Part shown: one piece after another, positions 1,951 to 60,644 of the stretch | How positions within the stretch are numbered: position 1 is the stretch's first letter | Layout: each line of letters opens with the position of its first letter | The notes under the pieces: generated by a model | Seen by the model: the letters and a program-made list of their open reading frames with translations, nothing else | Database searches by the model: none | Told to the model about the DNA's origin: nothing | Program-made: the position numbers and the translations under genes | NCBI GenBank assembly: GCA_903843285.1 | Contig: CAIMPC010000063.1 | Span: 4,627-68,626 of the forward strand | Length of the DNA: 64,000 nucleotides | Direction: 5' to 3' | DNA from: Candidatus Omnitrophota bacterium | GTDB taxonomy: Bacteria > Omnitrophota > Gorgyraeia > 2-01-FULL-45-10

Positions 1951-2877
1951 ATGGAAAAGATACGTGTCGGTGTCGTTGGGGTCGGGCATCTGGGCTCCAT
2001 ACATACTAAAATGTACTCCAGGTTAAATAATGTAAAGTTGGTGGGCGTCTGTGACTGCAACCTTGAACGCTCCCTGGAGATCGGAAAGCGCTTTAAGGTC
2101 GCCAGCTACTCGGATTATGAAGAATTATTCGATAAGATCGATGCCGCCAGCATAGTCGTACCTACAAGCCTGCACTACAATGTCGCAAAGGACTTTCTCC
2201 GGCACGGTATACACGTTTTAATAGAAAAGCCTATAACTAAGACGCTTACAGAGGCCGATGAACTTATAGAGATAGCGGAAAAAAATAAACTGATCCTGCA
2301 GGTCGGACATATCGAACGTTTCAACTCAGCGGTGCTTGCGCTCGAACCCTATATTAATCGGCCTAAATTCATCGAGTGCCAGAGGCTCGGCCCTTTTCAC
2401 TCCAGGGTCCAGGATGTGGGCGTAGTCTTAGATCTTATGATCCACGATATCGATATTGTGCTGGGCCTTATACAGCAAGACGTAGTCAATATCGAAGCCG
2501 TTGGGCTTTCCACAATATCTAATTACGAAGATGTGGCGAACGTCCGCCTTACATTTAAGGATGGAACCATAGCCGACATCACCGCAAGCCGGGTCACAAA
2601 AGATGTCGTCAGAAAGATGCGTATATTTCAGGAAGAGTCCTACCTCTCGCTTGACTACGTCACGCAGAGCGCAATGCTCTTCGAAAAGACGGGTGATAAG
2701 ATTATTCAGAATAAGATACCGGTCCGTAAGAAGAATCCTCTTAAGAAGGAGCTTAAATCCTTCATAGACCGGGTCCAGACCGGAAAGCGCCCGATAGTTT
2801 CCGGCATTGAAGGTAGACGAGCCCTTGCTGTCGCTCTCGAGATAATAAAAAAGATCTCCCCTGCTAAACACCAGTAG
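1951..2877 (+). CDS. Gfo/Idh/MocA-family NAD(P)-dependent oxidoreductase
   Basis: The ORF track starts at 1906, but the ATG at 1951 (MEKIRVGVVGVGHLGSIHT...) has a Shine-Dalgarno and is the likely start. It has an N-terminal Rossmann GxGxxG and an EKP motif (VLIEKP). It sits immediately upstream of lpxB. Confidence 0.8.
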   Translation: MEKIRVGVVGVGHLGSIHTKMYSRLNNVKLVGVCDCNLERSLEIGKRFKVASYSDYEELFDKIDAASIVVPTSLHYNVAKDFLRHGIHVLIEKPITKTLTEADELIEIAEKNKLILQVGHIERFNSAVLALEPYINRPKFIECQRLGPFHSRVQDVGVVLDLMIHDIDIVLGLIQQDVVNIEAVGLSTISNYEDVANVRLTFKDGTIADITASRVTKDVVRKMRIFQEESYLSLDYVTQSAMLFEKTGDKIIQNKIPVRKKNPLKKELKSFIDRVQTGKRPIVSGIEGRRALAVALEIIKKISPAKHQ

Positions 2878-2910
2878 CGCAAAATTAATTCATGAGCAAA
2901 TAAAACTTTT

Positions 2911-4047
2911 ATGTCGAAAAAAATACTCATAATCTCAGGCGAACCCTCCGGAGACCTCCACGCCTCCAATCTTGTGCGCAACCTTAAGTCTCTCGATCCC
3001 ACACTGCAATTTTACGGAGTCGGAGGAGAGCTTTCGAAGGCCGCAGGCGTAGAGATCATATTCGACATAACGAAACTCGCGCTTATAGGCCTGGTTGAGG
3101 TCCTAAAAAATATTTTTGTCGTAAAGGATGCTCGCGATGCCATAATCTCGCGAATAGGCCGGGAGCGGCCGGATATGGCGATTCTCGTCGACTACCCCGG
3201 ATTTAATCTAAGAATGGCGCAAAGCCTATCCGGGAAGGGTATCCCGGTAATCTACTATATAAGCCCACAGGTCTGGGCTTGGGGCCGGGATAGGGTCAAG
3301 ATAATTAAGAAGTGCGTAAAGAAGATGGTGGTCTTCTTTAGGTTCGAGAAAGAATTTTATAAGGCCTTCGGGATAGACGCTGAATTCGTGGGGCATCCTC
3401 TCGTGGACGTGGTAAAGGTCACCTCGTCTAAAGAAGAGACATTTAAAAAATATTCACTTTCAAAGGATAAGAAGACGATTGCCATATTGCCCGGGTCGAG
3501 GGAATCTGAGATAATCACTCTTCTGCCGGAAATAGCTAAGGCGTCCGCTATCGTAAGCGAGAAGATCGGGGGCGTACAATTTATTATATCGAAGCGTCCT
3601 GATCGCCCGATATCGATGTACGATGCGGGGCTTAAAGGCGCTTCTTTCGATTACAAACTTATTGAGGGAGATACCCATAACATAGTAGCCGCCTCGGATT
3701 TCGCTGTAGTCGCCTCAGGGACGGCCACTCTCGAGACCGGAATGCTCGGAACGCCTCTCATAGTAGTATATAAGACGGCGTTTCTGACCAGTGTAATCTA
3801 CCATATGGTTAAGGATATACATTTTTTAGGACTGGTAAATGTGGTGGCCGGAAAAGAGGTGGCTCCGGAATTATTGCAGTACGAGATGACGGCGAAGAAC
3901 ATATCCGATAAGATCATCGAAGCGCTATCAGATCCCTCAAAGCTCGCCCACACACGCAAAGAGCTCGCCGGCATACTCCCATCTCTGGGCCCCGGCGGAG
4001 CCAGCATGCGCGCCGCCCAGGCAATTCTGCCATTACTTAAATCATAG
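2911..4047 (+). CDS. lpxB: lipid-A-disaccharide synthase
   Basis: 378 aa with an LpxB-type N-terminus, MSKKILIISGEPSGDLHASNLVRNLK. Confidence 0.85.
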   Translation: MSKKILIISGEPSGDLHASNLVRNLKSLDPTLQFYGVGGELSKAAGVEIIFDITKLALIGLVEVLKNIFVVKDARDAIISRIGRERPDMAILVDYPGFNLRMAQSLSGKGIPVIYYISPQVWAWGRDRVKIIKKCVKKMVVFFRFEKEFYKAFGIDAEFVGHPLVDVVKVTSSKEETFKKYSLSKDKKTIAILPGSRESEIITLLPEIAKASAIVSEKIGGVQFIISKRPDRPISMYDAGLKGASFDYKLIEGDTHNIVAASDFAVVASGTATLETGMLGTPLIVVYKTAFLTSVIYHMVKDIHFLGLVNVVAGKEVAPELLQYEMTAKNISDKIIEALSDPSKLAHTRKELAGILPSLGPGGASMRAAQAILPLLKS

Positions 4048-5517: not shown

Positions 5518-5656
5518 GACGAGGCTTGTCATTGCGAGGCGCGCCGGAGTTTTAGTGGCGGGCGAAGCAATCCCCTTGCCTGGAGGCTTCACACTCCAAA
5601 AGCAAGATTGCTTCGTCGCCCGACGTTAAAACAATAGCTTCTCGCAACGACGAGTC
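5518..5656. repeat. nested imperfect inverted-repeat element (~140 bp) between bioD and bioA
   Basis: The inner arms 5549-5572 (GTTTTAGTGGCGGGCGAAGCAATC) and 5606-5632 are near-reverse-complementary. The outer arms 5518-5538 and 5641-5656 also pair. The element is GC-rich, lies in a 233-bp non-coding gap inside the bio operon, and has no ORF. Confidence 0.5.
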
Positions 5657-5698
5657 TGTTATAGAGCTGAACTGTTACTTTATATTAGCCCTTACAAA

Positions 5699-6403
5699 TT
5701 AATGGGTCCTGTCTTCGGTCGCCTTCTCTACATTTCTGCCTATCGAGCGAAATTGTTGATACAAAATTTCCTTATTTCGCGACGACGAAATAGTCCCCAG
5801 CATAGCCATACCAGCTATGCTCCCAACTATCCTTGGGTTGTCTTTAAGAATCATTTCGTCCTGCTCACTGCAATTATTATTAAAGATAACGCCGGCTATT
5901 TTCATGCCTCGCGCCTTAAGGGCTTCTATACTTAATAACGTGCTGTTAATTGCCCCCAGCCTATTGCCGGCTACGAGCAGTACGGGCAGGCGCATTCGTC
6001 TCACCACGTCTATGATGAGCTTTCCGCCTCCAATAGGAACCAATAGCCCTCCACTTCCTTCGATAATTATGAAGTCGAAGTCTTTCGACAGTGTGGTCAA
6101 AGATTTCTTTATCTTCGCTTCGCTTATACGTCTTTTCTCGAGCCGCGCAGCCAAGTGTGGAGATGAAGCATGCTTAAATTCATATGGCATCATCAATGGC
6201 AAATATTTAGAGTAATCGGCCCTATCTCTTCCCATAAAATTAAGATGGGTATCGATATCGTTTTTCATTTCCACGGAGCCGGTCTGTATCCACTTCTGAG
6301 TCACGACCCGATAGCCTTTCTCAAGCAGATACCGCCCCAAAAGTCCGGTTATCACCGTCTTACCTACGCCTGTACCTGTGCCCGCTACAAATACAGCTTT
6401 CAC
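5699..6403 (-). CDS. bioD: dethiobiotin synthetase
   Basis: 234 aa with the P-loop AGTGTGVGKT near the N-terminus. Confidence 0.85.
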   Translation of the reverse strand: MKAVFVAGTGTGVGKTVITGLLGRYLLEKGYRVVTQKWIQTGSVEMKNDIDTHLNFMGRDRADYSKYLPLMMPYEFKHASSPHLAARLEKRRISEAKIKKSLTTLSKDFDFIIIEGSGGLLVPIGGGKLIIDVVRRMRLPVLLVAGNRLGAINSTLLSIEALKARGMKIAGVIFNNNCSEQDEMILKDNPRIVGSIAGMAMLGTISSSRNKEILYQQFRSIGRNVEKATEDRTH

Positions 6404-7164: not shown

Positions 7165-7847
7165 ACGAGCACCTCTTTAAAGGCGGGCGAAAGGAACGGC
7201 ATGTGGCCGGCGTCATCGATCGTAATAAGTTCGGCCTCCGGGATTTGACTCACCAGCTCTTTGACTTCCCCAATCGGCGCGATTAAATCTTTCGCACCGT
7301 GGATAAACTTAACCTTTAAGCCATTCAATGGCCGTGGCTCTATACTGTGTTCCGATAGATAATCCAACCCCTCGATAAGCCGCTCCAAATCCATGCACTC
7401 AAGGTAAATCTTCATAAGATCCTCTTTAAAAAGGCTGAAAGATTCCTTATCTTCCTCGGAAAAACAGTTACCATAAAATTTACGGAGAAACCCGCGTCTA
7501 TTCTTCTCCAGAAGCAATTTTATATTATCGTTATTTGTTTTTGAGTAACTCCGTCTTGCGCTGACGAGAAATCCATCATCTATCAGACCCCGATGTTTTG
7601 ATAGAAACTCCCAGATTATGAAGGCGCCCATAGACCAGCCAAGCGCCGATACCTTCTTCAGGCCATTATCATTTAAAACATCGGGAAGATCATCCGCCAG
7701 TTTGAAAGAAGAAAAATCGACAGGAAGGAGATAGTTGTATCCTATGTTTAGCCTATCGAATATTCTGTAATCACAAGCCCATCCGGACACCAAAAGCATT
7801 GTCTTTCGAAAACCTCTGTCCACAAACCTAAATTTTGACATGGGCAA
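7161..7847 (-). CDS. alpha/beta-hydrolase, candidate pimeloyl-ACP methyl ester esterase (BioH/BioG-like)
   Basis: 228 aa with nucleophile elbow GWSMG and a C-terminal DAGH. It sits between bioF and bioC. Confidence 0.55.
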   Translation of the reverse strand: MPMSKFRFVDRGFRKTMLLVSGWACDYRIFDRLNIGYNYLLPVDFSSFKLADDLPDVLNDNGLKKVSALGWSMGAFIIWEFLSKHRGLIDDGFLVSARRSYSKTNNDNIKLLLEKNRRGFLRKFYGNCFSEEDKESFSLFKEDLMKIYLECMDLERLIEGLDYLSEHSIEPRPLNGLKVKFIHGAKDLIAPIGEVKELVSQIPEAELITIDDAGHMPFLSPAFKEVLV

Positions 7848-26408: not shown

Positions 26409-27459
26409 ACGTTCCTTCGCCCGAGACCATGCACGAACCGACCGGACGCTCCGGGGTGCACCTATTGCCGAATAATTTGCACTCGTCGGGTCTTTTCATG
26501 CCCCTAAGAACCATTCCGCAAATGCACGCTTTATTCTCTAGGGCAGGGGCCAATTTAACTTTAAATCTCAATGCGGCGTCGAAGTCCGAAAATTCTCTTC
26601 TTATCCTCAGTCCGCTTCGGGCTATTCTTCCGATACCTCTCCATTCGGCAGGACTTTCTTCAAAAACCCTATTCACGATCTTTCGCGCCAGCGGGTTCCC
26701 TTTTGAATCGATAACTCTTCTATACTGCACTTCTACCCTGGGCGAAGATTGCCTCAATAGCATGAGTATCGACTGCAATATATCGATAGGTTCAAACCCG
26801 GCCACAACAGCTCCGATTCCATACTTTTTGGAAATAAATCCGTACGGCTTCGTGCCTATTATTGCGCTTACATGCCCCGGCAGAAGAAACCCATCGATAA
26901 GATTATCGCCGGATGAGGCTATAGATTCAAGCGCCGCAGGCATTGTCTTATGCGCAGATAAAACGGAGTAGTTGGCTATACCCTCTCTCTTTGCTTCGAG
27001 TATCGATGCCGCCACGGTGGGGACTGTCGTCTCAAAACCGACCCCGAGAAAAACCACCTGCTTATCCGGGTTTCTTCCGGCAATATCTATGGCATCGTCC
27101 GTCGAGTAAACTATCTTTATTTCTCTGCCGCTGGCCCTCTCTTTTTCAAGGCTCGAGCGCGATCCGGGCACACGCATCATATCCCCAAATGTCGCAATAA
27201 TAACGTTGGGCAGTTTCGCTATCGCGATGGCGCGATCCAGATAACCATTCGGAGTAACGCACACAGGGCATCCCGGACCGGAGAGCAATTTTATATTTGC
27301 GGGCAATAGACTGCGCAAACCGAACTTAAAGATCGCCATCGTATGCGTCCCGCACACTTCCATGTACCTGTATTCAAAACGCTCATCCACTGACCTACGT
27401 ATCTGTTCGGCCAGCTTTTTGGTAAGGGTGAGGCTTCTGAATTCGTCTATGTATTTCAT
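26377..27459 (-). CDS. hypD: hydrogenase maturation factor HypD
   Basis: 360 aa with GPGCPVCVTP and CGTHTMAI motifs. Confidence 0.9.
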   Translation of the reverse strand: MKYIDEFRSLTLTKKLAEQIRRSVDERFEYRYMEVCGTHTMAIFKFGLRSLLPANIKLLSGPGCPVCVTPNGYLDRAIAIAKLPNVIIATFGDMMRVPGSRSSLEKERASGREIKIVYSTDDAIDIAGRNPDKQVVFLGVGFETTVPTVAASILEAKREGIANYSVLSAHKTMPAALESIASSGDNLIDGFLLPGHVSAIIGTKPYGFISKKYGIGAVVAGFEPIDILQSILMLLRQSSPRVEVQYRRVIDSKGNPLARKIVNRVFEESPAEWRGIGRIARSGLRIRREFSDFDAALRFKVKLAPALENKACICGMVLRGMKRPDECKLFGNRCTPERPVGSCMVSGEGTCAAYYKYGNI

Positions 27460-29126
27460 TTCTTTTCTAAGGTCATAGGATTGAACCTATTCTTTGCAAA
27501 TATATACCAGGCCGCGCATGATACAAATCCTTTCGAAGAGTCTACCCACTCATAACCGCCCGTCTTGTTAACGGTGTAAGGTAACGCCCTGGTTCTCCTG
27601 GAGGATATATTCCTATCGAACAATAATTTATCCATCTGATTTGCATAAAAGTATCCGCGCCCGGAATCACCATAAGCCATATATGCGCACGCCATGTGAC
27701 CGTTACCGTCCACCCAGATATTATTTACCTCTATATCCGGGCCATGAAAAAAACCCACAACCTTTTCATCCAGAATATCCAATGTCTTTCTGTACCTTAA
27801 GTCATACTCCGGTATATTAAGTAGATCTTTATATTCTTCACCCATCGCCAGCACTCGCCATGAATAGTTATCTAATGCCAGGGCCGGGCCCTTAACATTC
27901 GCATCTATCCACCCCTTAATCTTCGCGGCATATTCGTCTTCTTTGCATAGCCTCATCGCCGCATAGCAGTCAATATTAGCCTCCGGATGCCCATAGCCTT
28001 CGTGAAGCTTCTCATCGTTGTTACGCCAGCCATGCTGTATGTAGCCGCCGGGCTTATCGTCTTTATAATAGAAGGTTAAAAGATCTCTTATAAGCTTTAT
28101 TATCGTGTCATACCTGTCGGACTTATACTCTTTCTGGTAGTATTTATAGGCTATTAAAAGCCAGGCCATGTCTCCTATCCATCTGTCTGTACCCGCCGGA
28201 GCGTGATAAGCCTTTACCGGACCGGTATCATTCAATAACACCGATTGATAGAAACCGCGCGGCGAGCCTTTATAAAAGAAGTTCTGCAATGTCGGATCGT
28301 CATTGTTTACCCGTGTGGCATTCGCATAAAAATCCAATATTCGCTCTGCCCTTTCTCGCTCGCCTTTCAGAATGAATGCTATCGCTACGATACTGTTATT
28401 AAACGTCTGGGCAATATTATCTTCCATTGAGGATACGAGGGCCTTATCGCCTGATGATGTATCCTGCATGGCTTTCAGATATTCCAGCACCAGCGGGTCT
28501 TCCGCTATAAGCTCGGCGTCGCGCCTGGGCCTGAAACCATTACCCGGCAATTCCCTGTCCGGGTCCAGGACCGCTCCGCCCATACCGAAGCTCGCCTCGT
28601 CACCCGGTGTGCCGGGGCCGATCTCATCTATCATTACACTACCGCTTCCTCTGCCTGATATCGCAATCTCAAAGGTCACTATCTGATCTAATTTATCATC
28701 GCCGCCCCACCAATGGTCCGCATTATAAGAATATATGACGACTTTGGTCCATTCAGTGTACCTTTTAAGAGGAACCTTCTTTCCGAAGATAGAGCCGTCG
28801 ACGTCTATGAACTTCATTTCTATATCGCCGGCCCCGCCTGCTTTTATATAAAATTCTATCGGATCATTCTCGGTTATCCTGCCGGCCACAACTTTGGCGA
28901 GCGAAACCCATCCGGAATTTTCCTTAAGCATGTAATTTATCTCTAATGCCTGCGCCTGCCTGCCATCAAACGGTTTCACCGTAACCCAGCAACCATCGGC
29001 GGCATTGGTCGACCACTGGGACACATCGTTCCACAGCTCGGCAGATTCGCCGGCTATTGAAACGAACGACAAAATGGCCGTCAGACAGAAGATCGTTATT
29101 ATGCCTATTGATATTTTCACGCGCAT
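27456..29126 (-). CDS. secreted hypothetical protein; N-terminal CBM-like beta domain plus alpha/alpha-toroid-like domain
   Basis: 556 aa with a signal peptide (MRVKISIGIITIFCLTAILSFVSIAG). Its stop overlaps the hypD start by 4 nt (ATGA). The function call is weak. Confidence 0.45.
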   Translation of the reverse strand: MRVKISIGIITIFCLTAILSFVSIAGESAELWNDVSQWSTNAADGCWVTVKPFDGRQAQALEINYMLKENSGWVSLAKVVAGRITENDPIEFYIKAGGAGDIEMKFIDVDGSIFGKKVPLKRYTEWTKVVIYSYNADHWWGGDDKLDQIVTFEIAISGRGSGSVMIDEIGPGTPGDEASFGMGGAVLDPDRELPGNGFRPRRDAELIAEDPLVLEYLKAMQDTSSGDKALVSSMEDNIAQTFNNSIVAIAFILKGERERAERILDFYANATRVNNDDPTLQNFFYKGSPRGFYQSVLLNDTGPVKAYHAPAGTDRWIGDMAWLLIAYKYYQKEYKSDRYDTIIKLIRDLLTFYYKDDKPGGYIQHGWRNNDEKLHEGYGHPEANIDCYAAMRLCKEDEYAAKIKGWIDANVKGPALALDNYSWRVLAMGEEYKDLLNIPEYDLRYRKTLDILDEKVVGFFHGPDIEVNNIWVDGNGHMACAYMAYGDSGRGYFYANQMDKLLFDRNISSRRTRALPYTVNKTGGYEWVDSSKGFVSCAAWYIFAKNRFNPMTLEKK

Positions 29127-29131
29127 CCTAT

Positions 29132-29338
29132 CTATATATCCTTCGCCAGTTCGATGGTTTTTTTTGCTTCATCGGGTTTAATCTTAGCTATCGCGAAACC
29201 GGCATGCAAAAGAATATAGTCTCCCAATTTTACATTTTTAAGCAGCGTAAAATTCACTTTACGCTTAAGGCCCATCGACTCCACCACACCATTATTCCCG
29301 TCGATCTCAATAACCTTCATAGGTATAGCTAAGCACAT
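29132..29338 (-). CDS. hypC: hydrogenase maturation factor HypC
   Basis: 68 aa starting MCLAIPMKV. Confidence 0.85.
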   Translation of the reverse strand: MCLAIPMKVIEIDGNNGVVESMGLKRKVNFTLLKNVKLGDYILLHAGFAIAKIKPDEAKKTIELAKDI

Positions 29339-30456
29339 ATTTTCCTCGCCTCGGCGATAGCGACCTGCCCTATCGGTATCCCGTAATCGTTTGTATTGAC
29401 CGCGGATTGCGTATAAGCATCAAACCCATTCTTATTTAATAACGATAGCGCCTTCTTCTTAAGGTACATATTTTGGAAGACGCCGCCGCTTAATGCAACC
29501 TTATCTATATGAACTTTTTTGCGTAGGCGTATTGCAACATCGGTAATCACCCCGGCCATGGTATTATGAAACTTTGCCGATATAATATTACTACGCAGCC
29601 CTTTATCCATATCCGAAAGGATCCCCTTGATCGTCATAGACATATCGATTAAATACATCTCGTCCTCATACATGATATCAAATTTATAACATCCATTGCA
29701 CAATTCATCAGCTATCTTCTCAAGCTCTATCGGAAGCTCTGCTTCATAAGCCGCAAAGGCCTTAGCTAATACGATACTGGCTACGGCATCAAATAACCTG
29801 CCTGCGCTGGAGGTGAGCGGTGAGTTCATCCTCTCGTCGATCATCTTCCTTAATAACTTAAATCGTTTAACGCTAATCGTCTTCATGCAATATAGATCTG
29901 AATATGCTAGTTTTACGCCAAATGCCTTATAGAGATAGCTTACAGCCATCCGCCAGGGTTCGATCACTGCCGCATCACCCCCCGGCATGGGCACATAGCT
30001 AAAATGGGCAACTCTGGAGAAACTCTGTGCCCGGCCGATAAAAAACTCGCCGCCCCATATACAGCCATCAGGCCCATATCCTGTGCCATCAAATGCTATA
30101 CCTACCACTTCGGTCTTAATGCAATGTTCCGTGATCGCGCTGGCGATGTGTGCCTCATGGTGTTGCACATCGCAAATTTTTGCCCCCAACTCGGATGCAT
30201 GATCTCGGGCGAAACTACTGGAAAAATATGCCGGGTGAAGATCGCACACTACGATGGATGGTTTTATATTGAGCTTACTCTCGTGCGATTTTATAGCCGC
30301 CTCATATGCATTAAGATTATCAGGGTCATATAGTTCACCGAAACCATCGACCAGATATGCCCTGTCTGCCTTGGCGAGTGCGAATGCGCCCTTCATATCC
30401 GCCCCGCACGCCAGTATCGGAACCTTAACCTTAAACGGAAGTTCTACAATCTTCAT
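29329..30456 (-). CDS. hypF: HypF carbamoyltransferase, C-terminal Kae1/YgjD-like domain only (truncated HypF)
   Basis: 375 aa with ILACGADMKGAFALA, VCDLHPAY, VQHHEAHIAS, GIAFDGTGYGPDGCIWGGEF and ALSGGVFQN. It has no acylphosphatase, Zn-finger or YrdC domain, and only 110 bp of non-coding DNA lies upstream. Confidence 0.75.
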   Translation of the reverse strand: MKIVELPFKVKVPILACGADMKGAFALAKADRAYLVDGFGELYDPDNLNAYEAAIKSHESKLNIKPSIVVCDLHPAYFSSSFARDHASELGAKICDVQHHEAHIASAITEHCIKTEVVGIAFDGTGYGPDGCIWGGEFFIGRAQSFSRVAHFSYVPMPGGDAAVIEPWRMAVSYLYKAFGVKLAYSDLYCMKTISVKRFKLLRKMIDERMNSPLTSSAGRLFDAVASIVLAKAFAAYEAELPIELEKIADELCNGCYKFDIMYEDEMYLIDMSMTIKGILSDMDKGLRSNIISAKFHNTMAGVITDVAIRLRKKVHIDKVALSGGVFQNMYLKKKALSLLNKNGFDAYTQSAVNTNDYGIPIGQVAIAEARKICA

Positions 30457-30479
30457 TTCGCTCCGAGATTGTTCACTAT

Positions 30480-30530
30480 ATTATACCGCGCGGGGTTTGT
30501 AACCTGGCATATCTAACCCAGGTTAGATAT
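30480..30530 (-). promoter_or_regulatory. promoter -10 TATAAT plus upstream palindrome ATATCTAACC-CA-GGTTAGATAT in front of hypF
   Basis: A minus-strand TATAAT lies at fwd 30480-30485, about 24 nt before the start. A 22-bp near-perfect palindrome lies at 30509-30530, about 23 nt upstream of the -10. Nearly the same palindrome recurs at 59921-59941. Confidence 0.35.
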
Positions 30531-30566
30531 ATAGACAGGCATCCGCCTGCTTGTGGAGCTAAAAAC

Positions 30567-31370
30567 CTACACCACCACTATTGATATACCCTTTTGGTCG
30601 GCGAAGGATACAATCGTATCCCTGTCTATAAGGAGAGTCTTCTCTGCTTCTAAAGCGAGCGCTGTTCCCCCTGCTCTTGCTAAGGCCTCTACCGTATCGA
30701 GACCCACCAAAGGGATATCGAACCTCATATCCTGGTTGGGCCTAGCCATCTTGACAAGGACAAATCCTTTCTTCGACAGGTTACCCGCCCTGGCGATGGC
30801 TTCATCCGTCCCCTCGACCGCCTCGAGAGCAATTACGGTCTTGTTTTTAACAATAACGGTCTGGCCTATATCGAACCTGGCCAACTCTCTGGCAACAGTC
30901 TTAGCATAATCGATATCTTCCGACTCTTCTTTGTCCGGCTCCCTCTTCGTGATAATGCCTTTGGCGGGCATCAATTCCTTCAAATACGGGGTCGGATCGA
31001 TGATCTCTATCCCGAACTTCGCCAGAAATTCCGACACCTTATTAAGCATCGAGTAATCTTTATTGTCCCCGAGCTTGGTCAGCAGGGATTTTGTCTTCTC
31101 ATCGAATTTCCCGTCATCCTTAAAGAAAAGGTCTTTCTTTATTTTACCCAGAAGAACCACCTTATTTATTCTATTAGAAAGAACTGCAAATATCATCTTC
31201 TGTAAGGCTCCGAATTCGAACCAGATGAATTTATCAACATGATTTTCTAAATCGGTTGCGGTCATTCCATTAATGCCTATACCAACCACTTTATCACCAA
31301 GTCGTCTTGCGTTGTCCGCGAATATTATCGGGAGCCTTCCGGCGCCCGCCACCAAACCTATATTAGCCAT
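30567..31370 (-). CDS. lpxI: UDP-2,3-diacylglucosamine hydrolase LpxI (DUF1009)
   Basis: 267 aa with GLVAGAGRLP, DIGQTV, EAVEGTDEAIAR and DIPLVG, matching the LpxI pattern. Confidence 0.7.
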   Translation of the reverse strand: MANIGLVAGAGRLPIIFADNARRLGDKVVGIGINGMTATDLENHVDKFIWFEFGALQKMIFAVLSNRINKVVLLGKIKKDLFFKDDGKFDEKTKSLLTKLGDNKDYSMLNKVSEFLAKFGIEIIDPTPYLKELMPAKGIITKREPDKEESEDIDYAKTVARELARFDIGQTVIVKNKTVIALEAVEGTDEAIARAGNLSKKGFVLVKMARPNQDMRFDIPLVGLDTVEALARAGGTALALEAEKTLLIDRDTIVSFADQKGISIVVV

Positions 31371-58890: not shown

Positions 58891-59889
58891 TCATATCATC
58901 TCCACGCATCCGTTACCCTTAAGAACCCTTCCTATCACATGAGACTTTAGTCCGGTAGCACTCAGTGTCGACTGTGCCTTATCTACGGAATTACGGCCTA
59001 CAACGACTACCATGCCAATGCCCATGTTTAGCGCCCTGTACATCTCCCTGTCTTCTATATTGCCCTTCTTCTTAATAAACTCGAATATCCACGGCGGGCT
59101 CCAGGAATCTTTCGATATTTCAATAGCCATCCCTTTCGGAATTATCCTCGGTATCTTATCGTAGAATGCACCCCCGGTAATATTAGCTATACCTTTTATC
59201 TTCACCTTTTTAGTCAAATTTAGGACATGCTTTGCGTAAAGGCGCGTGGGCTTCAATAATTCCTTGGAATACAATTTGAGTTCTCTTGCGCTCAACGCTT
59301 TACGGACGAGTGAATAACCGTTCGAATGTAAACCGCTCGATTCGAGCCCCAGGACGACATCGCCTGCAATGGTTCCCGCGCCATCTATCACATTCTTCTT
59401 ATCCACAATACCTACGCCGAAACCGGCCAGATCATATTCACCTTCGCCATACATTCCGGGCATCTCCGCGGTCTCACCGCCTACGAGCGCATATCCGGCC
59501 TCTTTACACGCGACAGATATGCCTTTCACCACATCTCTCAACACGCTCGATCGGATCTTCCCGGTCGCTATATAATCTAGAAAGAATAACCCCTCGGCAC
59601 CCGAGCAGAGTATGTCGTTCACGCTCATTGCGACCAGATCTATACCCACGGTATCGTGTTTATCGGCAAGAAACGCTATCTTAAGTTTAGTTCCAACGCC
59701 ATCGGTCGAAGAGACCAGAAGAGGATCCTTAAACCGTCTGAATCCGGGCCTGAATAGCGCGCCAAAACTCCCAACGTCGCTGATGACACCCTTAATCTTC
59801 GTCGAAGCCGCGAAACGCTTATAGTCAGTGACGAGCTTATTCGCCTTGTCTATATCTACACCTGATGATTTATATGTAATTTTTTCCAC
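58891..59889 (-). CDS. purM: phosphoribosylformylglycinamidine cyclo-ligase
   Basis: 332 aa AIR synthetase fold. The likely start is GTG at 59889, with a GAGGAG Shine-Dalgarno. Confidence 0.9.
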   Translation of the reverse strand: MEKITYKSSGVDIDKANKLVTDYKRFAASTKIKGVISDVGSFGALFRPGFRRFKDPLLVSSTDGVGTKLKIAFLADKHDTVGIDLVAMSVNDILCSGAEGLFFLDYIATGKIRSSVLRDVVKGISVACKEAGYALVGGETAEMPGMYGEGEYDLAGFGVGIVDKKNVIDGAGTIAGDVVLGLESSGLHSNGYSLVRKALSARELKLYSKELLKPTRLYAKHVLNLTKKVKIKGIANITGGAFYDKIPRIIPKGMAIEISKDSWSPPWIFEFIKKKGNIEDREMYRALNMGIGMVVVVGRNSVDKAQSTLSATGLKSHVIGRVLKGNGCVEMI

Positions 59890-59920
59890 AATCCTATGCT
59901 CCTCATAGACCTAATCTGCC

Positions 59921-59941
59921 ATTTCTAACCAGGTTAGATAT
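59921..59941 (-). promoter_or_regulatory. palindrome ATTTCTAACC-A-GGTTAGATAT overlapping the purC stop, 31 nt upstream of purM
   Basis: Near-identical to the palindrome at 30509-30530. The shared 25-mer is GCCAT(A/T)TCTAACC(C)AGGTTAGATAT. Confidence 0.3.
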
Positions 59942-60644
59942 CCATTATCCGGCGAAGGACTTCCTGGTACGCCTCTTCTACATTGCCCATATCCCGCCTG
60001 AAACGATCCTTATCGAGCTTCTCCTTCGTCGTCTTGTCCCAGAGCCTGCATGTGTCGGGAGAGATCTCGTCGGCCAGTATGATCTGGCCCTTAAATCGGC
60101 CGAACTCGAGCTTAAAGTCGACGAGTATAATGCCCTTAGAATCGAAGAACTTCTTCAGCTCTTCATTAACCTTAAGTGAATATTTATCGATCGTCTCAAG
60201 CTCTTTATCCGTGGCTATACCAAGCGCCTTTACGTGATACTCGTTAATAAGCGGGTCGTGGAGCTTGTCTTCTTTATAATGGTACTCCAGAACCGGCTCC
60301 TTTAAGACAATCCCTTCTTCCAGTCCGAGAAGTTTCGCCATTCCCCCGGCGACTATGTTCCTCACAGTCATCTCGATCGGCACTATCTCGACTTTTTTTA
60401 CCAGCATGTCTCGATCGTTAAGCCTTTTAACAAAGTGCGTCGGTACGCCTTTTTTTGCGAGTAGCTCAAATATCTTCTCGGAGAGCTTATTATTTATTAT
60501 GCCTTTATTCAGGACGGTACCACGCTTCGTGGCATCGAATGCCGTGGCGTCGTCTTTAAATTCCTGTATAACGAGGTCCGGATTATCGGTAGAAAATAAT
60601 TTCTTGGCCTTGCCTTCATATATCTGTTTAATCTTTTCCATCAC
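59934..60644 (-). CDS. purC: SAICAR synthetase
   Basis: 236 aa with a PurC N-terminus. Confidence 0.9.

Follow-up and report, generated by a model that had tools for sequence, protein, structure and literature searches.

Two near-identical palindromes in an Omnitrophota genome as probable singlet repeats of a REP/REPIN-RAYT system

The window, i.e. the whole stretch of DNA that was analysed (64,000 nucleotides of a Candidatus Omnitrophota bacterium), contains two near-identical palindromes, one in the spacer between lpxI and a gene encoding the C-terminal (Kae1-like) domain of HypF, the other at the junction of purC and purM. All four flanking genes are located on the minus strand, in the orders lpxI>hypF and purC>purM. 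The first palindrome, ATATCTAACCCAGGTTAGATAT (30509-30530), lies 40 nt past the stop codon of lpxI (30567..31370; Pfam LpxI_N and LpxI_C) and, counted from its 13-14-nt core, 56 nt ahead of the ATG of the HypF domain gene (29329..30456; Pfam HypF_C and HypF_C_2). The second, ATTTCTAACCAGGTTAGATAT (59921-59941), includes the stop codon of purC (ATC TAA), its plus-strand TTA at 59934-59936 being the TAA of the minus strand; purC (59934..60644) encodes SAICAR synthetase (Pfam match 2.9e-88). The core of this palindrome lies 35 nt ahead of the GTG of purM (58891..59889; AIR synthase), the ribosome-binding site of which, GAGGAG, is found 19 nt past the palindrome. The inner palindromes are TCTAACCCAGGTTAGA at 30512-30527 and TCTAACCAGGTTAGA at 59924-59938. 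An initial annotation of this DNA had noticed both palindromes and the overlap of the second one with the purC stop codon, and our analysis agrees with it on these points; the 27-mer that it quoted for the first site is also present, although it starts at 30506 rather than at 30507, and the distances that it stated are roughly correct, the -10-like box being about 23 nt and the ribosome-binding site about 19 nt away. The hyp cluster of the window (27456-30456, minus strand) contains HypF only as its C-terminal Kae1-like half (375 aa), followed by hypC (68 aa), a 556-aa ORF without a Pfam match, and hypD; the same arrangement occurs in the loci L168 and L170.

The pattern TCTAACC-N0-3-GGTTAGA has two matches in the 64-kb window against 0.00 expected, and none of 100 dinucleotide-preserving shuffles contained two matches. 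A third copy was not found in the window even with up to three mismatches allowed, as the initial annotation had also stated. The likeness of the two sites is, on the other hand, not limited to the 22 bp annotated originally. On the plus strand the palindromes are preceded by GTAACCTGGCATAT (site 1) and CTAATCTGCCATTT (site 2), and an extra arm, YTAAYCTGRCA, is situated 4 nt to the left of each of them. Since the shared sequence extends past the palindrome, the repeated unit is about 31-34 nt long (30499-30532 and 59911-59941, both on the plus strand). In copy 1, a spacer connects the arm GTAACCTGGCA (30499-30509) with the palindrome, and the whole corresponds to the family consensus yTAACCTGrCAaAT-CTAACCAGGTTAG-AT except for one extra central C; this copy is identical in five metagenome contigs of the same population (L001-L005), contigs identical to that of the window being present in several metagenomes. 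Copy 2 is partly decayed, its arm, CTAATCTGCC, having two substitutions relative to the consensus. Both copies are oriented alike, with the arm on the plus strand. As to the strand itself, GC skew is negative in all 2-kb bins of the window (1-64000) except 2001-4000, and the minus strand carries the genes that were examined near the two sites (about 27-36 kb and 57-63 kb), which suggests that the minus strand is the leading one.

According to the initial annotation, the 1-2-nt centre of the palindrome made a hairpin implausible; folding predictions contradict this for site 1. As RNA, site 1 forms a stem of 10 bp closed by the tetraloop CUGG (-8.9 kcal/mol, z -2.8), while in single-stranded DNA its arm pairs with the distal half of the palindrome (TAACCTGG/CCAGGTTA; -6.0 kcal/mol, z -3.5). 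In other words, the arm is complementary to a part of the palindrome, and the single strand therefore folds into a hairpin of 8-9 bp. This arm-palindrome hairpin is the minimum-energy fold of single-stranded DNA for site 1 and the reference copies (-6.0 to -6.6 kcal/mol, z -2.5 to -4.1), the copies flanking the transposase gene described below having z of -2.5 and -4.1. Site 2, with its two arm substitutions, folds weakly: as RNA no better than its shuffles (-3.8 kcal/mol, z -0.3), as DNA with -2.6 kcal/mol and z -1.6. Two inverted units make up a REPIN-like doublet with a stem of 13-17 bp; a doublet folded as single-stranded DNA gave a 17-bp stem (-17.2 kcal/mol, z -8.5), and doublets folded as RNA had z of -5.4 and -6.1.

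Beyond the window, more than 80 metagenome contigs and about 20 MAG loci of Omnitrophota share the repeat unit. A 17-mer scan of species-representative genomes (one genome per species) with the pattern ATATCTAACC-N1-2-GGTTAGA revealed 43 loci, about 20 of them in Omnitrophota or in PVC-labelled TPA MAGs, often with several matches per genome; a few matches in other phyla are due to chance or unrelated. In JGI metagenomes, ATCTAACCWGGTTAGAT was present in at least 116 stretches, their contigs having 37-58% G+C. The 102 loci of the Omnitrophota type contain 168 exact 13-mer cores, CTAACCNGGTTAG, grouped into 68 singlets, 45 doublets, two triplets and one quadruplet. The spacing within doublets has its peak at 34-35 bp, with a minor class of 25 bp, and of 52 pairs of adjacent copies, 46 have complementary centre bases (43 A…T and 3 T…A), which makes the doublet a true inverted repeat. 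In singlets, the arm yTAACCTGrCA is four bases away from the palindrome and, when it is set on the left, the centre base is A in nearly all of the singlets listed; with this base, the arm TAACCTGG and the CCAGGTTA of the palindrome are exactly complementary. The unit can thus be described as about 30 nt consisting of the arm TAACCTGG, 5-6 spacer bases and CTAACC-A-GGTTAG. Its density varies from up to eight palindromes per 20 kb (L173) through two per 64 kb in the window to none in the 20-kb loci of some relatives. A chance likeness of two short palindromes, which might be thought of given that there are just two copies in 64 kb, is of negligible probability in view of both the shuffles and the more than 100 other loci in which the unit recurs together with its arm.

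A search with the E. coli RayT (from NC_000913.3) against the ORFs of the collected loci led to an ORF at 2470-3048 (minus strand) of locus L084, which has a Pfam Y1_Tnp match of 2e-19. Four members of the family of this ORF score 82.1, 91.0, 91.4 and 79.6 bits with the NCBIfam model NF047646 (REP_Tyr_transpos, REP-associated tyrosine transposase; cut-off 80), and only about 30 bits with the IS200 model (cut-off 55). The best and only convincing PDB match is 4ER8, i.e. TnpA-REP. The Omnitrophota protein is about 22% identical to the E. coli RayT, and H66 and H68 (HUH), Y126 and N130 are invariant in the alignment that includes the latter, the tyrosine being part of Y-x-x-x-N-P-V. The family has 83 members at E<=1e-10, all the named ones from Omnitrophota. 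In five independent loci (L084, L173, L174/175, L176-178 and L179-181), with RAYT identities of 60-100%, the gene order is spoVG-UPF0102-comM-RAYT, comM here being a comM-like Mg-chelatase gene, and in all five the repeat is found within about 40 nt of both ends of the RAYT gene. Doublets flank the gene in L084 and L173; in L174 a doublet lies upstream of it and a consensus singlet, TTAACCTGGCAAATCTAACCAGGTTAGAAT, downstream, and L179 has such a singlet on either side. At the most divergent of the RAYTs examined (60% identity; L176-178), the flanking repeat is a variant, TCAACCWGGTTGA, in which all half-sites have changed together; the repeat and the transposase appear to co-vary. This variant forms triple arrays, ATCAACCTGGTTAAATCAACCAGGTTGATTTAACCAGGTTGAA, flanking the RAYT gene (e.g. 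L176 9900-10000 and 10600-10680). In most family members the 3' REP is translated as the C-terminus of the RAYT (…NLANLTRLE*). Neither a Y1_Tnp ORF nor comM was found within the 64-kb window, and the family member that shares source databases with the window came from other samples. A second, more distant Y1_Tnp ORF (Pfam 2.2e-9) is present in an Omnitrophota MAG (L009, 2933-3430, minus strand); it does not belong to the RAYT family described here, and the inverted repeat on its flanks is another one, CTCAGATCTAGATCC, without the TAACCWGG motif.

As to the genomic context of the copies, 31 clusters of the element are located between co-directional genes, 5 between convergent and 4 between divergent ones, and 8 inside ORFs, these classes resting on simple, crude ORF-based gene calls. 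The neighbours are unrelated housekeeping genes, such as trmD-rplS, prmC-aroA, rho-rpmE and pheS-pheT, in addition to lpxI-hypF and purC-purM of the window, and several of the upstream ORFs have their stop codon within the element. The prevalence of co-directional spacers, in which the copies lie from a few to about 35 nt ahead of the next start, together with the good RNA folding of site 1 and of the doublets and the ability of E. coli REPs to stabilise upstream mRNA, could point to an intercistronic RNA hairpin selected for mRNA stability, processing or translational tuning. However, singlets are oriented to transcription in sense and antisense equally (6 and 6), some copies are situated between convergent or divergent genes, site 2 folds as RNA no better than shuffled sequences, and the element is present at orthologous sites only sporadically (see below). 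Besides, no Rfam family other than a tRNA was found at gathering score in the window, with nothing at E<=1 around site 1, and neither window locus has a terminator-like site, the stems being A+T-rich with no T-run after them. We therefore consider a selected RNA element to be very unlikely.

Several other types of site were considered and rejected. An intrinsic (Rho-independent) terminator does not fit, as there is no G+C-rich stem-loop with a T-run at either site. Integron attC sites have the loose R''/R' consensus RYYYAAC/GTTRRRY; the core of the repeat fits it, but the doublets lack the attC architecture and are found within housekeeping operons. A DNA uptake sequence or a site of the parS/NBS/matS type is disfavoured by the low density, the mostly intergenic position of the copies, the co-variation of arm and hairpin, and the copies flanking the RAYT gene.

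Further evidence on the window copies comes from the orthologous junctions of the closest relatives found, the best named PurC and LpxI relatives all being proteins of Candidatus Omnitrophota/Omnitrophica MAGs. The order purB-purC-purM-purD is conserved in them, and in L049 (95% PurC identity) as well as in L050 and L051 (88%) the purC-purM spacer is 12-26 nt long and contains no palindrome. PurC ends with …RRVME*, the commonest form, in 71 of the 120 homologs listed and with …RRIIE* in the closest relative; in the window it ends with …RRIMDI*, its last codons and TAA being provided by the element. The order lpxI-hypF is conserved as well. The corresponding spacer of L170 is 40 nt long and has no palindrome, that of L169 is an unrelated G+C-rich sequence, and that of L168 (10804-10910) contains a different perfect palindrome, GTAGTAGCCCAGGCTTAAGCCTGGGCTACTA, beginning with GTAG. 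The latter could represent a second REP-like family, with this spacer as a possible hotspot of insertions of this kind. The absence of the repeat from both orthologous junctions marks the window copies as lineage-specific additions and not as conserved regulatory sites. Among the relatives compared, there was no exact pair of filled and empty sites with clean boundaries, because the spacer has diverged in the closest relative lacking the element.

Downstream of copy 1, the minus strand contains a promoter-like stretch (30475..30503) composed of GTTACA (30503-30498), a 17-nt spacer and TATAGT (30480-30475). Its first hexamer belongs to the REP arm, and one such site was found against 0.3 expected; in addition, a CGC-TATAAT box near the hypF start is kept in L168 and L170, the window having its TATAAT at 30485-30480, overlapping TATAGT. 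Copy 1 could thus have been exapted and now contribute a -35 element to an internal promoter of hypF, a reading compatible with its origin as a REP. However, the stretch is a match to a consensus only, one that may not suit Omnitrophota promoters, and both relatives keep the -10-like box without any REP, the REP consequently being not required; we regard such exaptation as unlikely. The flank offered little else in terms of promoters: a GG-N10-GC match, as in a sigma-54 reading, was absent by eye, and the scan for sigma-70 gave no site besides this weak sigma-70-like one, which uses the REP arm.

The initial annotation had offered two readings of the palindromes, a short repeat element and an operator at which a dimeric transcription factor, binding the duplex, would co-regulate the hyp and pur operons, and had noted that membership in a dispersed repetitive element would refute the latter. 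The copies do lie in unrelated housekeeping spacers of Omnitrophota, as a dispersed family that flanks the RAYT gene in five relatives, and it is the reading as a repeat that is borne out. What makes an operator conceivable is a perfect or near-perfect palindromic core just upstream of a -10-like box and of a ribosome-binding site, and also the occurrence of nearly the same palindrome, in an operator-like position, before MarR-like genes of Lachnospiraceae and Oscillospiraceae. In four MAG loci of these families (L007 ~3600-3700, L018 ~5850-5950, L024 ~5560-5660 and L025 ~7220-7320), TTGACA-N17-TATAAT is followed by CTAACCSGGTTAGATAT, a ribosome-binding site and a MarR-like gene of 146-157 aa. 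The near-identical core, TCTAACCSGGTTAGATAT, which lies over the transcription start region, looks like the operator of an autoregulator; it is, however, present there in one copy, by the regulator gene and behind canonical -35 and -10 hexamers, with no arm, doublets or dispersal, and we take its likeness to the Omnitrophota repeat as coincidental. As for regulators of the Omnitrophota repeat itself, all-versus-all BLAST of the ORFs surrounding the elements showed no recurrent transposase or regulator, the RAYT having emerged only in the search with the E. coli RayT; of the co-occurring regulator that the initial annotation proposed to look for, the only candidates are Rrf2-family ORFs. Five loci with the element contain such an ORF, and in two of these, L037 (1435-1889) and L117 (999-1335), it is immediately next to a REP doublet, which could be counted in favour of an operator; in L117 the doublet is followed by a promoter-like TTGACA…TATAGT stretch with a palindrome of its own. 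Yet the site is missing at purC-purM in L049, L050 and L051 and at lpxI-hypF in L168, L169 and L170, its copies are found in operons of unrelated function (rplS, aroA, rpmE, pheT, hypF, purM) and, in five clusters, between convergent genes, and no regulator other than the Rrf2-like ORFs recurs beside them. The co-variation of the centre base with the arm fits a hairpin and not a duplex site for a dimer, and the copies flank a RAYT gene. All this makes an operator shared by the hyp and pur operons extremely unlikely.

We conclude that both sites of the window are very probably singlet REPs, and that the REP/REPIN-RAYT system to which they belong is one of Candidatus Omnitrophota. In relatives, the repeat family is dispersed, occurs sporadically at orthologous positions and flanks the RAYT gene. 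By analogy with TnpA-REP of E. coli and the REPINs of Pseudomonas, a Y1/HUH RAYT, itself flanked by repeats and presumably single-copy and vertically inherited, would recognise the hairpin in single-stranded DNA and would spread or excise copies of the repeat, which would end up in short intergenic spacers. The comparison with relatives shows that the window copies reached their spacers, lpxI-hypF and purC-purM, within this lineage, the second copy having replaced the last codon or codons of purC and its stop. The purC-purM spacer is lengthened by this copy, while copy 1 would add to the lpxI-hypF spacer a moderately stable hairpin and a -35-like hexamer. Any effects of the two copies on expression would be side effects, and co-regulation would be expected from neither.

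A complete in-frame singlet REP was also observed in an endonuclease-III-like (HhH) gene, where it codes for …LNLANLTRLD… (L031 5885-5915, L058 3382-3412, L107 534-564 and L088 ~345-375). The homolog from L035 has ITLSGLGSLD at this patch, with about 60% nucleotide identity over it and the length unchanged. Some of these proteins (L058 2828-3847, L107 164-961 and L035 5297-6142) have, in addition, an insertion of about 17-25 residues (e.g. DLTPRRGQSQCKRPCSGSSRDCQAR), absent from that of L031 (5569-6261), which may be another element inserted in frame.

REP conservation in Proteobacteria is at the level of a genus or a family, and the Omnitrophota core is conserved more broadly. Taken together, the nearly unchanged core of 13-17 nt in contigs from 37% to 58% G+C, the RAYT fixed after comM, the NLANLTRLE terminus encoded by its own 3' REP, and the REP in frame in the endonuclease-III-like gene raise the possibility, which we advance tentatively and with less than even confidence, that the REP-RAYT partnership is ancient and extends over a large part of the phylum Omnitrophota. 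If so, the tie between the host and the repeat would be deeper and tighter than that described for Enterobacteria and Pseudomonas, and a host function of the repeat or of the RAYT would be suggested. The retention of an exact 13-17-mer over this range of G+C content could also reflect a binding site of a host protein.

Assignment of the two palindromes to a repeat family removes the inference of a regulator common to hydrogenase maturation and purine synthesis, and explains the odd C-terminus of PurC and the enlarged spacers. More generally, it documents in an uncultured phylum a REP/REPIN-RAYT system with a conserved core, a syntenic RAYT, a co-varying variant and translated repeats; a full-text literature search for the core sequence or for Omnitrophota palindromes gave no such description. 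The system provides a lineage outside Proteobacteria for work on long-lived REPIN populations, and annotators of Omnitrophota MAGs should not take the motif for a regulatory site.

Several known systems resemble the one described here in part. Rickettsia palindromic elements (RPE), of 100-150 bp, can sit in frame in genes and are not known to have a dedicated transposase. Like them, the Omnitrophota REP is read as protein, namely in the C-terminus of PurC, in the C-terminus of the RAYT and in the internal LANLTRLD of the endonuclease-III-like gene; in contrast to them, its unit is only about 30 nt long and is linked to a RAYT. With IS200/IS605 elements the Omnitrophota system shares the Y1_Tnp fold family and subterminal hairpins at both gene ends in direct orientation (L179), but its transposase gene occupies one conserved chromosomal position, the dispersed copies are hairpins alone, and the IS200 equivalog model remains, as noted above, far below its cut-off.

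In the features of the repeat and the transposase there is a likeness to the REP/BIME and RayT system of E. coli (TnpA-REP, YafM; 4ER8). Both have short hairpin-forming extragenic units, present as singlets and inverted pairs between the genes of operons, and a Y1/HUH transposase gene flanked by its own repeats, the HUH motif and the catalytic tyrosine being conserved and the REP_Tyr_transpos cut-off reached or nearly reached in Omnitrophota. The density in the Omnitrophota window is, by comparison, low. E. coli REPs also carry a conserved 5' GTAG, while the Omnitrophota repeat is unrelated in sequence: it is based on TAACCWGG, A+T-rich, composed of three half-sites and has no obvious 5' GTAG.

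As for the REPIN-RAYT systems of Pseudomonas (Bertels and Rainey, 2011, PMC3116915; Bertels et al., 2017, PMC5581495), their RAYTs are single-copy, repeat-flanked and vertically inherited (PMC5581495). The Omnitrophota system differs from them by a doublet spacer of only about 21 nt, by the translation of the 3' REP as the C-terminus of the RAYT, and by its occurrence in a different, uncultured phylum. The likeness consists in inverted doublets that form long hairpins and exist beside singlets, in the synteny of comM and RAYT retained in Omnitrophota down to 60% identity, and in a repeat variant that tracks the divergence of the RAYT.
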